DNA of 64,000 bases from Alphaproteobacteria bacterium (GTDB lineage Bacteria; Pseudomonadota; Alphaproteobacteria; RF32; CAG-239): the NCBI GenBank assembly GCA_017937705.1, contig JAGBDC010000016.1:27518-91517 (forward strand), read 5' to 3'. The first letter of the stretch is position 1. Each line of letters opens with the position of its first letter. A program made the translations under genes and the position numbers. Under the pieces are notes generated by a model. The model was not told the origin of the DNA, ran no database searches, and saw only the letters and a list, made by a program, of their open reading frames with translations. This document shows positions 24,165-27,356 of this stretch, piece by piece.

Positions 24165-24602
24165 TTATTCTGCTTTTTCAGCAGCTTCTGCAGCAGCTTT
24201 TTCAGCAGCTACACGAGCTTTATCTTTAGCACCTTTAGCATTAACATCTCTGTCAACCAATTCGATGATTGCCATTGGAGCCGCATCGCCATAGCGGATA
24301 CCTGCTTTTAATACACGTGTATAACCACCATTACGAGAGCTGTAACGTTCTGCCAAAGTAGAAAACAACTTAGAAACAACTTCTTCGTCGCGCAAAAAGG
24401 CCAAAGCCAAACGACGACTATTCAAATCACCTTTTTTAGCAAAGGTAATCATGTTGTCAGCAAAAGTTCTCAATTCTTTAGCACGTGGCAAAGTAATTTT
24501 GATTTGTTCATGATTCAACAATGCGCAAGTCAAGTTAGAGAACAAAGCTCTTCTTTGGCTGGTCGGCATATTAAATTTTCTATGTGCATCACCATGTCTC
24601 AT
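24165..24602 (-). CDS. rplQ: 50S ribosomal protein L17
   Basis: The conserved start is MRHGDAHRKFN. The track ORF carries a spurious 55-aa N-terminal extension up to 24767. Confidence 0.9.
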   Translation of the reverse strand: MRHGDAHRKFNMPTSQRRALFSNLTCALLNHEQIKITLPRAKELRTFADNMITFAKKGDLNSRRLALAFLRDEEVVSKLFSTLAERYSSRNGGYTRVLKAGIRYGDAAPMAIIELVDRDVNAKGAKDKARVAAEKAAAEAAEKAE

Positions 24603-24744
24603 GGCATTTTCCTTTCTTCTATAAACTGTGCTTTGACAGGCAAAGCGGATAAAACACCGGTCTTTACTACGGAGTCGCTTTGCGACCATACATAAAAACC
24701 CACTCTTTCGAAACGGCTTATAACACACAACTTTTTGAAAAGCA

Positions 24745-24776
24745 AGAAAAAACGTCACATTTTTCAATGTGACGCA
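24745..24776 (-). terminator. Intrinsic terminator of the small membrane-protein gene, upstream of the rplQ leader
   Basis: On the minus strand, CGUCACAUU-gaaaa-AUGUGACG followed by UUUUUUCU. Confidence 0.55.
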
Positions 24777-24793
24777 TTAAAGATTGTAAAAGC

Positions 24794-25090
24794 TTATTCT
24801 TTTTCAAGAGCCTCTTTATTAAGCTCATTATATTCTTTTAAGCATTTACGTGACTTTTTATAACAAGACCAAAGGCCTATATCACAAAAGATCATCAACA
24901 GCCCCATAAATCCTATACCCAATTTTGAGTAAAGCGGCATTGTAACCACAGGAGGTGTTACAATAGCATACACAATACCCGCACAACCTATTATGGTTAG
25001 AAGCAGAGCGGTCAAAAACGTTACCTTTTGATTTCTTACATTTGCGGCCATACGAGCGACAATGTTTTTTTCGAAATTTTTCATACGCAA
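24794..25090 (-). CDS. Small two-TM membrane protein, hypothetical
   Basis: Track ORF of 98 aa with two hydrophobic helices. Confidence 0.4.
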   Translation of the reverse strand: MRMKNFEKNIVARMAANVRNQKVTFLTALLLTIIGCAGIVYAIVTPPVVTMPLYSKLGIGFMGLLMIFCDIGLWSCYKKSRKCLKEYNELNKEALEKE

Positions 25091-25173
25091 AATGTTAGTT
25101 AATAATATTCTTTAGTGGACAAATGATAGCAAATTTGATTAAAAAGTCAATAAATCAAATCAGGAGAATACAA

Positions 25174-25611
25174 ATGAAATTGCTGATACAAAGAGTAAAA
25201 AAAGCTTCGGTTAATGTAAATAACGATACTGTCGGAAAAATAGAACAAGGGATTTTAATTTTTATCGGAGTTTGCAAAGAAGATACTAAAGAACAAGCCG
25301 ATTTTCTCGCACGTAAAGCTGCAAACTTACGAATTTTTGAAGATGAAAACGGAAAAATGAATTTGTCTGTTAAAGATATAAAAGGTGAAGCATTGGTTAT
25401 CTCTCAGTTTACTCTTGCCGGAGATTGTACCCGAGGAAACCGTCCCGGATTTGACAAAGCTGCACATCCCGATATTGCCAAACCAATGTATGAATATTTT
25501 TCGGAACAATTACGTAATGAAAATATAAAAGTTGAAAACGGAATTTTTCAAGCAGATATGCAAGTAAGTTTAATTAATGATGGTCCGGTTACTTTCATTT
25601 TGGAAAAATGA
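25174..25611 (+). CDS. dtd: D-aminoacyl-tRNA deacylase
   Basis: Start at MKLLIQRVKKASV. It carries the SQFTL motif and the ...NDGPVTF C-terminus. It is oriented opposite to the flanking genes. Confidence 0.85.
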   Translation: MKLLIQRVKKASVNVNNDTVGKIEQGILIFIGVCKEDTKEQADFLARKAANLRIFEDENGKMNLSVKDIKGEALVISQFTLAGDCTRGNRPGFDKAAHPDIAKPMYEYFSEQLRNENIKVENGIFQADMQVSLINDGPVTFILEK

Positions 25612-25626
25612 TAATCATACTCAAAT

Positions 25627-26043
25627 TTAATTACAAATTTTATACAATGCATTAATTATTGTTTTAACTTTTTTAAGGTTATTCTTGTTTTGCAAAAAAC
25701 AGATGATTTCTTGCCATTTTTCTGTTTCCGAATATATATTTTTGCTAATAACAGAATAGTTATCTCCTCGAGGGCTCATTAATTTTATTTTTTCAGGCAT
25801 ATTTTCATAAAAATAACCGACCGGAACACCTAAAACCACTGAAAAATCATATAATCTACTGGCACTTATTCGATTCGCCCCGTTTTCATATTTTTGTAAT
25901 TGCTGAAAACTAATATTGATATTTTGAGCCAATCTTTCCTGAGTTAATCCTAGTTCCAGTCTTCGCAACTTTATTCTGTTGCCCACATATACATCAATCG
26001 GATTCGGTCTTCCGTCTGCTTGTTTTCCACGATTCTGTTTCAT
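25627..26043 (-). CDS. XRE-family (Cro/C1-type HTH) transcriptional regulator
   Basis: LGLTQERLAQNINISFQQLQKYENGANRIS forms a helix-turn-helix. The likely start is the ATG at 26043, with an AAGAGG RBS 5 nt upstream. The track gives an upstream GTG start. Confidence 0.7.
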   Translation of the reverse strand: MKQNRGKQADGRPNPIDVYVGNRIKLRRLELGLTQERLAQNINISFQQLQKYENGANRISASRLYDFSVVLGVPVGYFYENMPEKIKLMSPRGDNYSVISKNIYSETEKWQEIICFLQNKNNLKKVKTIINALYKICN

Positions 26044-26061
26044 TCCCACCTCTTAAAAAAA

Positions 26062-26290
26062 AAGAAAAGTCACTTGATGAGAGTGACTGGGAGCTGAAAA
26101 CTACACAACAATAGTGCGACTTATTACCGCATGGCTATTAGGTCGCCTCCCAGTCATAAGACCAAAAGGCAACCAAGTTTCGTCTTGATTAGACGTGCTG
26201 TGAAAGGTTTTCAGACCTTAAAACGTTCATCACTCGTTTCAAAAAGAATCTATAAAATAAACTGATAAAAGTAAAGAAAAATAAAAATTG
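26062..26290 (-). ncRNA. Candidate structured leader RNA or sRNA of about 200 nt ending in an intrinsic terminator that abuts the RBS of the XRE gene
   Basis: On the minus strand there are local hairpins AAGGU-cugaaa-ACCUU and CGUCU-aauca-AGACG. A long-range stem CUGGGAGGCGACC...GUCGC...CUCCCAG is also present. The terminator is AGUCACU-cucauca-AGUGACU followed by UUUUCUUUUUUUUU. GC content is higher than the flanking DNA. Confidence 0.35.
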
Positions 26291-26295
26291 CCACC

Positions 26296-26333
26296 AAAAA
26301 AGCCTCTTTTCTAAGGAAAAGAGGCTTTTGCAA
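26296..26333 (-). terminator. rpoA intrinsic terminator (bidirectional)
   Basis: AAGCCUCUUUU-ccuua-GAAAAGAGGCUU, an 11-bp stem plus a U-run, placed 13 nt after the rpoA stop codon. Confidence 0.7.
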
Positions 26334-26345
26334 AAGATATATGTA

Positions 26346-27356
26346 TTAGAAATGATCATCTACTCTTTTAATCAATTCTTCAATATTCTCAGGTGGCCAT
26401 CCCGGGGTATCCATACCAAGGTGAATACCCATCTTAGCCAATACTTCTTTAATTTCATTCAAAGATTTACGACCGAAGTTTGGAGTTCTCAACATTTCAG
26501 CTTCTGTTTTTTGAACCAAATCACCGATATAAACAATATTATCGTTTTTGAGACAATTTGCAGAACGAACTGACAATTCGAGTTCTTCAACCTTTTTCAA
26601 CAAATTCTTGTTGAACGGTAATTCTTCTTTTTCTTCTTCCACTTCATTTTCCGGTTCATCGAAATTAATAAACGGTTTTAATTGATCTTGAAGAATACGA
26701 GCAGAGAAAGCTACTGCATCTTCAGGGGTAACAACACCGTTTGTTTCAACAACCAATGTCAATTTGTCATAGTCTGTAACTTGACCAACACGAGTATTAT
26801 CCACACGATAAGAAACACGTTTTACCGGAGAATAAATAGCATCAACAGCTATCAAACCGATAGGAGCATCTGCTGGCTTGTTCTGACTAGCAGGGACATA
26901 ACCTTTACCTGTGTTAACAGTCAATTCCATATTAATTTTAGCACCTGCATCAAGGTTACAAATAACCAAGTCAGGGTTCATGATTTCAACATCGTGACCG
27001 GTTTCAATCATAGATGCAGTAACCGCACAAGGACCTTCTGCTTTTAATGTCATTGTTCTTGTACCTTCGCTGTGAACAGCAACGGCCAAGCATTTAACAT
27101 TAAGCACAATGTCGGTTACATCTTCTCTAACACCGGGGATAACCGAAAATTCATGTAAAACACCGTCAATCTTAATTGCGGTAACTGCACCGCCTTGTAA
27201 AGAAGACAATAAAATTCTTCTCAATGCATTACCCAGAGTAAGACCGAAGCCTCTCTCCAAAGGTTCAACAACTATTTTAGCTTTGTTGCCGCCTTCGCTG
27301 GGAACAATTTCTAAATTAGTCGGTTTAATAAGTTCTTGCCAATTCTTTTGAATCAC
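26346..27356 (-). CDS. rpoA: DNA-directed RNA polymerase alpha subunit
   Basis: Protein of 336 aa with conserved N-terminal and C-terminal domains. Confidence 0.95.

Follow-up and report, generated by a model that had tools for sequence, protein, structure and literature searches.

A 64,000-nucleotide stretch of contig JAGBDC010000016.1 (Alphaproteobacteria bacterium, assembly GCA_017937705.1; hereafter the window) carries on its minus strand a structured RNA of about 186 nt, positions 26240-26055, directly 5' of a gene for an XRE regulator. The reading favored here, to which we assign a probability of about 0.5, is that this element is a leader-encoded regulatory RNA of the architectural class that includes c4, sRNA-Xcc1, and IsrK, and that it has two outputs, a short terminated RNA and a read-through XRE mRNA. 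A first-pass annotation of the same DNA had proposed a structured leader RNA with a terminator in front of the XRE gene. That proposal is borne out, since the element is present, is identical in relatives, and has helices that covary in distant homologues.

The boundaries of the RNA are narrower than first drawn. An element of about 200 nt had been placed at 26044-26290; it does lie there, but the conserved RNA is the 186-nt segment, and positions 26241-26290 are promoter or spacer outside it. Both BLAST and R1, a covariance model of the RNA core that scores 72.7 bits on the window copy, find the element once in the 64 kb. An earlier contrast of about 45% GC with a background of about 30% holds in that the element (39-45% in 100-nt windows) is richer than the flanking intergenic DNA (26-27%), but not against the window as a whole, which averages 37.2%. 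Several minus-strand hairpins had been predicted, in agreement with the folding of the 257-nt stretch at -69.9 kcal/mol (z = -3.57), which 1 of 200 shuffles equaled. No tRNA or tmRNA was found.

The RNA ends in an intrinsic terminator (26055..26088, minus strand) just as the first-pass annotation had spelled it, with AGTCACT (26088-26082) and AGTGACT (26074-26068) forming the stem around the loop ctcatca and a T-run (26067-26055; 13 of 14 bases are T) behind it. The stem is worth -6.9 kcal/mol and U occupies seven of the first eight bases past it, as is characteristic of Rho-independent terminators. The U-run ends at 26055 and the Shine-Dalgarno (SD) sequence AAGAGG of the XRE gene begins at 26054, so the gap between them is 0 nt and not about 5 nt as had been stated. 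The remark that no promoter would fit between terminator and ribosome-binding site agrees with a promoter scan, which found no sigma-70-like site there. Because the terminator leaves no room for a separate promoter, the XRE gene is, to judge from its sequence context, transcribed only via read-through of the terminator. The element itself has a putative promoter (26249..26276, minus strand) composed of CTTTAC (26276-26271), a 16-nt spacer, and TATAGA (26254-26249). Matching geometry (CTTTAC-N16-GATAAT or GATAGT) occurs at the homologous loci L009, L011, and L014, and CTTTACA precedes both tandem copies of the RNA in L031. In L011 the RNA must have its own promoter since its upstream gene is divergent, and a CTTTAC-N16-TAnAnn motif is kept there, in the window, and ahead of the two L031 copies. 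The putative promoter is below the consensus cut-off of the promoter scan, and L007 and L008 have a 25-nt deletion in the promoter/spacer region.

The RNA is far better conserved than the DNA around it. Across six syntenic contigs from metagenome-assembled genomes (MAGs) of gut Alphaproteobacteria, a block of about 185 nt that runs from TTGAAACGA to the T-run differs at a single loop position only; these comparisons give the XRE gene about 70% DNA identity and rpoA (the gene upstream) 94-97%, and the upstream spacer varies. Relatives whose XRE protein is 48% identical still have an RNA that is about 90% identical. More distant copies were found by pattern scans of genome and metagenome collections, using a pattern that fixes both strands of helix P1 (described below). 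The resulting set comprises 16 copies in 15 loci, from gut and other alphaproteobacterial MAGs, Micavibrio, and MAGs labeled Bdellovibrionales and Planctomycetota, and includes two copies on one 1-Mb contig. Real copies score 47-82 bits, as against 16-34 bits for the many GC-rich pattern hits that match coding DNA by chance. Two pattern scans of viral contigs for phage-borne copies gave nothing or chance matches in coding DNA.

A hairpin comes behind the core in every copy, with an SD sequence and start codon next, 40-54 nt after P1. The open reading frames (ORFs) that follow are unrelated and encode XRE, TM2-domain, small hydrophobic, and lipoprotein-like proteins, in which Pfam matches nothing further. 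Conversely, XRE homologues without the RNA occur in Azospirillum and in a Rhodospirillaceae MAG (L070 and L071, the closest named ones). As the downstream ORFs are unrelated and the Azospirillum XRE homologues lack the RNA, the element is, on the evidence of gene content, a portable leader and not an XRE-specific element. Two loci illustrate duplication. In L031 (3100-3704) a unit of promoter-like CTTTACA, RNA, SD, and ORF start is tandemly repeated, and behind copy 1 stand nine codons (MIEISKNNY*) left over from the ORF of copy 2 (MIESSKEEL...). On contig LZQP01000001.1, the paralogues L047 (1017-1313) and L053 (1157-1453) precede different small membrane proteins, one of them with TM2. The hairpin of L047 and L053 cannot be an intrinsic terminator in that lineage because no U-run follows it.

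The core of the RNA (26085..26155, minus strand) can form a three-way junction. Helix P1 (26155-26147 with 26093-26085; 9 bp, GACUGGGAG paired with CUCCCAGUC) encloses two hairpins, P2 (26146-26116) and P3 (26115-26100), and a 6-nt single strand, J3/1 (26099-26094), follows P3. The junction is predicted for 14 of 15 cores folded in isolation; the unconstrained minimum free energy (MFE) structure of L009 swaps P2 for other small hairpins. Pairing holds in 99.3% of the cells of a model-based alignment of the 16 copies. Covariation in the core scores 0.264 as compared with 0.145 for shuffles, none of 500 being as high, with double compensatory changes in three of five P3 pairs and compensatory changes in P2 as well. 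A search of related genomes for conservation and covariation, suggested with the first annotation as a check, therefore came out in favor of the RNA, which is conserved and in which P2, P3, and three pairings of the 5' arm (S1, S2, and PK1) covary.

The 5' arm begins with hairpin H0 (26220..26240, minus strand; GAAACG..CGUUUU), whose counterpart, read by eye, stands 2-4 nt before the next hairpin, Pa, in every homologue. H0 is followed by a short U-run (26220-26240), and the Micavibrio counterpart resembles a small terminator; H0 may serve to stabilize the 5' end or as another stop for transcripts running on from rpoA. The loop of H0 also contains an AUG (26228), on which a ribosome-mediated attenuator could be built: translation of a short leader ORF would cover the 5' strands of helices S1 and S2, favoring the open fold. 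The window AUG does open a 13-codon ORF that runs across Pa and the 5' strand of S2, and short ORFs exist in L009, L011, and L014. However, their frames and lengths vary (13, 10, and 22 codons, in different frames), they have no proper SD, and distant homologues have no AUG or ORFs of 4 codons. Since relatives do not preserve the frame of the short ORF, leader-peptide attenuation is highly improbable.

Hairpin Pa (26204..26219, minus strand) presents the loop CUGAAAAC (26214-26207), the 5' strand of S1, which resembles strand a1 of the c4 system and pairs with J3/1. The next strand, CACAGCA (26196..26202, minus strand), is b1-like and pairs with the P3 loop UGUUGUG to form S2. S1 joins 26214-26207 to 26101-26094, and S2 joins 26202-26196 to 26110-26104. 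Both helices show strong covariation among homologues: cognate S1 duplexes average -7.1 kcal/mol versus -2.4 for non-cognate ones, and cognate S2 duplexes -12.0 versus -6.2 kcal/mol (permutation p<1e-4 for each). S1 and S2 are wholly rewritten, with compensation, between the paralogues L047 and L053 and between the two copies in L031, which differ in S1, S2, and P3 and compensate every difference. The pattern CTGAAAAC..CACARCA has just one further match in the window, the Pa region.

Hairpin S3 follows (26181..26195, minus strand; CGUCU-AAUCA-AGACG), with compensatory C-G to U-A changes in its stem, and its loop pairs with UUGGUU (26176-26171) as pseudoknot PK1. The cognate PK1 pairing is the best of 5040 permutations of seven sequence classes. 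Finally, strand 1 (26160..26174, minus strand; GGUUGCCUUUUGGUC) pairs with strand 2 (26155-26141) across the loop UUAU (26159-26156) to give hairpin S4, in which 26169-26160 pair with 26155-26146 and which takes up the 5' strands of P1 and P2. The S4 duplex of the window has -24.0 kcal/mol versus -9.6 +/- 2.2 for shuffles, and S4 is present in 15 of 16 copies (about -20 kcal/mol versus about -10 for shuffles).

G-U pairs are frequent in P2, P3, and S4, which fits an RNA read from the minus strand and not a DNA palindrome. This bears on the idea that the feature acts at the DNA level, with the three copies of the motif CTCCCAGTC/GACTGGGAG serving as XRE operators or as recombination sites like those of integron cassettes. 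The motif does occur three times, in direct and inverted orientation, and integron cassettes are where sRNA-Xcc1 was first discovered (bioRxiv 10.1101/2025.06.18.660453). Against this, the helices depend on numerous G-U pairs that would turn into A-C mismatches if the opposite strand were read, covariation extends to long-range helices and a pseudoknot, and the element also stands before genes other than XRE while the XRE homologues of Azospirillum lack it. A role as DNA sites is scarcely plausible.

Judged by sequence, covariation, and computed energies, the RNA can adopt two mutually exclusive folds, each of which has covariation behind it. The closed fold consists of S1, S2, S3, S4, and the complete terminator; the open fold consists of P1, P2, and P3, with P1 taking the AGUC at the base of the terminator. 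S2 occupies the P3 loop in full (and, in some members, some of the P3 arm), S1 overlaps the 3' arm of P3, and one strand is common to S4 and P1. AGUC belongs both to the 3' strand of P1 and to the 5' arm of the terminator, and when the RNA begins with the first G of P1, this helix forms at the expense of the basal pairs of the terminator. Once P1 is formed in the window RNA, only three of seven terminator pairs could remain, and the residual hairpin is set apart from the U-run. The closed fold is the predicted MFE structure of the window RNA. On full-length RNA it is the MFE structure or lies within 3 kcal/mol of it in 13 of 13 sequences, and it lies 10-22 kcal/mol below the fold in which P1 is forced.

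Conditional read-through had been suggested in the first-pass annotation and is compatible with this conserved alternative pairing, in that P1 formation with AGUC would disable the terminator. The specific antiterminator then offered, GAGUGA:UCACUC, does not survive: it has one compensation (L009, GGGUGA:UCACCC) but three breaks that nothing compensates, in L004, L007, and L022 (GAAUGA), in L005 (GACUGA), and in L014, and is absent in distant homologues. The riboswitch part of the suggestion is not supported either. A metabolite or ion riboswitch, with the three-way junction as aptamer and P1 competing with the terminator, would explain the overlap of P1 and terminator, as in many ON-switches, and the conserved complex structure with its pseudoknot. 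Yet J3/1 and the P3 loop are variable and covary with the 5' strands, the downstream genes share no function, no riboswitch family matched even at E<=10, and relatives of the same architecture act by RNA-RNA pairing. Because the junction strand covaries instead of being conserved, and because the downstream genes are unrelated, riboswitch logic is very unlikely.

Among the nearest described RNAs is sRNA-Xcc1. No Rfam family reaches its gathering threshold in the whole window, and only tRNAs do so in 12 homologous loci. No class had been assigned in the first-pass annotation; architecture places the element with sRNA-Xcc1 and C4. A permissive Rfam scan gave one credible match, to sRNA-Xcc1 (RF02221; 26155-26077, full model length, 36.2 bits, E=8.6e-5), which is below the family's gathering score of 53 bits, as are the scores of L010, L049, and L047 (37.3, 31.0, and 27.0 bits). 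In the reverse direction, R1 scores 20.6-24.5 bits (E 5e-5 to 6e-4) on three bona fide sRNA-Xcc1 members, which score 69-73 bits on the Rfam model.

The likeness to sRNA-Xcc1 covers the three-way junction of P1, P2, and P3, with its 9-bp P1 enclosing two hairpins and its single-stranded J3/1, as well as GGGAG/CUCCC in P1, the AAUA...AAUAA internal loop in P2, an RCCA-like tail after P1, a hairpin, and, at 45-52 nt past P1, an SD and ORF. J3/1 and the P3 loop each have, in order, a complementary strand upstream. Two of the bona fide members, L067 and L068, have GGGAG/CUCCC, an ACCA or GCCA tail, the next hairpin, and an ORF start 45-47 nt past P1. The third, the Neisseria locus L069, differs: it lacks GGGAG, its tail is GCCC, and behind its core come a promoter and a second copy. 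In most homologues of the window RNA, P1 is followed by ACCA or GCCA; in the window it is followed by ACUC.

There are also differences. In the window RNA the 5' arm is joined directly to the core by the UUAU loop, whereas L067 and L068 interpose a terminator-like hairpin and a spacer. The window RNA has a real U-run terminator, unlike the sRNA-Xcc1 loci, and lacks the b2-like copy over the SD or start codon of the next gene that is present in L067 and L068. Its context is chromosomal, between rpoA and rplQ, in contrast to the integron, plasmid, or island context of sRNA-Xcc1.

The sRNA-Xcc1 loci themselves show c4-like features. L067 (780-1020, an Aeromonas caviae record) and L068 (790-1020, a P. 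aeruginosa plasmid) have c4-like a1 and b1 strands upstream and a b2-like site over the SD or start codon of the ORF that follows, which in L068 is a BRO-family gene. These sites suggest that sRNA-Xcc1, described as a trans-acting, virulence-linked small RNA (sRNA), is not only that but also a cis-encoded, c4-like regulator of the gene directly behind it. L069 (885-1180, a Neisseria gonorrhoeae record) contains an Xcc1 copy, a perfect TTGACA-N17-TATAAT promoter, and a weaker Xcc1-like match at 1110-1180.

The c4 RNA of phages P1 and P7 (RF01695; the c4-a1b1 motif of Weinberg 2010, PMC2864571) is encoded in immI and has the same order of parts as the window RNA. As annotated, immI of phage P1 comprises promoters, a1, b1, a strand that pairs with the 5' strand of helix P1, the UUAU/G junction, c4 (77 nt), a2/b2, and the start of icd 51 nt past c4. 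In c4, a1 pairs with J3/1 and b1 with the loop of the second hairpin in a nested order, which CUGAAAAC and CACAGCA reproduce in the window. The UUAU/G junction (also present in sRNA-Xcc1), the RCC tail, and the ORF start about 50 nt later are further points in common. However, c4 has a2/b2 over the icd ribosome-binding site and no terminator, while in the window RNA a terminator is present and a2/b2 are missing; and c4 controls an antirepressor in a prophage, while the window RNA fronts an XRE regulator in a housekeeping neighborhood. Neither sequence nor covariance models matched the window RNA significantly to c4. The C4 model (gathering score 45 bits) gave no match at E<=10 in 25950-26400, and L047 reaches 23.6 bits; R1 scores 4.4 bits on phage P1 c4.

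A perfect 6-8-nt complement to the P3-J3/1 region lies within 8 nt of the start codon in 4 of 10 distant homologues (L066, L028, L016, and L025); L066, for instance, has GAGACAAC at -8, and L028 has GAAAACC at -7. About 1 in 10 would be expected by chance. These sequence matches hint that in part of the family the start region is still a c4-type target.

Two further RNAs invite comparison with the element. IsrK, of the Salmonella prophage Gifsy-1, was shown experimentally to be produced both as a terminated sRNA and, by terminator read-through, as an inactive mRNA of the next ORF, and its long form has two alternative structures, one strongly favored (PMC4825925). IsrK is listed as a family beside C4 in annotations that PMC12189769 quotes. 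The likeness would lie in a Rho-independent terminator that is partly read through into the next ORF, a read-through that for the window RNA is predicted from its architecture. The alternative helices of IsrK involve the downstream ORF and control translation, whereas those of the window RNA lie upstream of the terminator. The permissive Rfam scan reported no match to the isrK model. The other RNA is CI of phage P4 with its sites seqA and seqC. As described in PMC4825925 and PMC5499578, and compared by description only, CI is leader-encoded, processed by RNase P, and complementary to an upstream site on the same transcript, with transcription termination as its output; according to the same papers it also has the downstream site seqC and acts on prophage replication genes. 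Both c4 and P4 CI are hairpin-type RNase P substrates, and c4 is recognized via its 3' end (PMC5499578, PMC2190699). The first-pass alternative of an sRNA with the regulator made from read-through transcripts would, by analogy, match the experimentally studied relatives IsrK (PMC4825925) and c4.

Under the two-output reading, transcription probably starts near 26240 from the element's own promoter. Most transcripts would take the closed fold and end at 26055, giving an RNA of about 186 nt, and XRE mRNA would arise only from the fraction that reads through. Read-through would be favored when the three-way junction replaces the closed fold, because P1 deprives the terminator of its basal pairs. 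To go by c4 and P4 CI, which RNase P processes at UUAU/G, and by IsrK, whose short form works on the read-through transcript of its own locus, what toggles the RNA is probably processing or pairing with another RNA and not a metabolite. A bolder version, which we consider doubtful and offer tentatively, is that the 5' arm is a built-in antisense lock and the primary transcript a self-silenced pro-RNA. RNase P-type cleavage at UUAU/G would free a c4-like junction RNA, which would then pair with the a1/b1 loops of its own nascent leader and decide whether the terminator forms.

Several points weigh against the two-output reading. The transcription start site, termination, and processing were inferred from sequence. 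The closed fold has a large energy advantage, and the sequence gives no route to the open fold on the full-length transcript. The overlap of P1 with the terminator is just 3-4 nt. Five of the 16 homologues have a poor U-run, so termination cannot be the output of every member. Neither fold makes the SD consistently more accessible. The window clade has no conserved c4-type downstream target (a2/b2), and family-wide such sites are about as frequent as expected by chance. Scores stay below the Rfam thresholds of both sRNA-Xcc1 and C4, and R1 fails to pick up c4. The covariation test excludes P1 and S4 since the retrieval pattern fixed both P1 strands.

Some of these observations suit a different account, the main rival, which we regard as possible but somewhat unlikely: that the RNA is an independent trans-acting sRNA like sRNA-Xcc1, that the XRE gene merely lies behind a leaky, unregulated terminator, and that the 5' arm only masks loops or stabilizes the RNA. 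In Xcc 8004, sRNA-Xcc1 is a discrete 88-nt RNA with mapped ends that starts at the first base of P1 (PMC2996969). The extreme conservation at every nucleotide, the canonical terminator, the invariably strong preference for the closed fold, and the lack of any structural effect seen on the SD fit such an sRNA. It is harder to reconcile with the SD and start codon at a fixed 40-54 nt in 16 of 16 copies before ORFs that are otherwise unrelated, or with the L031 duplication, which copied promoter, RNA, and ORF start as one unit. In some homologues, moreover, the ORF is necessarily co-transcribed because there is no usable U-run. No second target-like site exists within the 64-kb window, and in bona fide sRNA-Xcc1 and c4 loci the target is the gene directly behind the RNA.

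The kind of system described here is known from c4, CI, IsrK, and sRNA-Xcc1; the family of the element is not in Rfam and fails the thresholds of the nearest families. New, as read from the sequence, are the a1/b1 arm joined directly to the core, the intrinsic terminator in place of the a2/b2 target, and the position in a housekeeping operon before an XRE regulator. To our knowledge, the c4/CI/IsrK/Xcc1 class is known almost only from phages, prophages, and integron cassettes. A structured leader that could not be assigned thus becomes a testable member of this class of leader-encoded RNA regulators, and such an RNA is documented in a core-genome position, between rpoA and rplQ and before an XRE regulator, in uncultured gut Alphaproteobacteria. 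The a1/b1 pairings are only "putative" in the phage P1 annotation; the strong selection and full paralogue compensation found here are the first comparative evidence of their function. If the antisense-lock proposal were true, an RNA-only feedback switch would govern a chromosomal XRE regulator, and at least three bacterial phyla would have domesticated a phage-immunity device, using it as a portable promoter-leader cassette.

The genes rpoA and rplQ (L17) are normally neighbors. In the window (24165-26345) about 1.6 kb parts them and holds the RNA, the XRE gene, dtd, and a 98-amino-acid (aa) ORF. The upstream gene rpoA (27356-26346, minus strand) has its own intrinsic terminator (26295..26329, minus strand), a hairpin of AGCCTCTTTTC and GAAAAGAGGCT followed by a T-run, which marks the upstream boundary and is not part of the element; among the relatives compared it is less conserved than the RNA. 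The XRE/HTH_3 gene with its SD occupies 25627..26054 on the minus strand (SD 26054-26049, ATG at 26043) and encodes 138 aa; Pfam HTH_3 matches at E=9.9e-14, and Pfam, NCBIfam, and PADLOC give only generic helix-turn-helix matches. Between it and rplQ lie dtd (D-Tyr-tRNA deacylase; 25123-25611, plus strand), which is convergent, and the membrane-like 98-aa ORF (24794-25090). The order rpoA-[RNA]-XRE-dtd-hypothetical-rplQ is kept in the six syntenic contigs. In L011 the RNA-XRE-dtd unit adjoins different genes, and in L070 and L071 the XRE homologue sits inside a polysaccharide export/glycosyltransferase cluster with an upstream spacer of only 98-134 nt.

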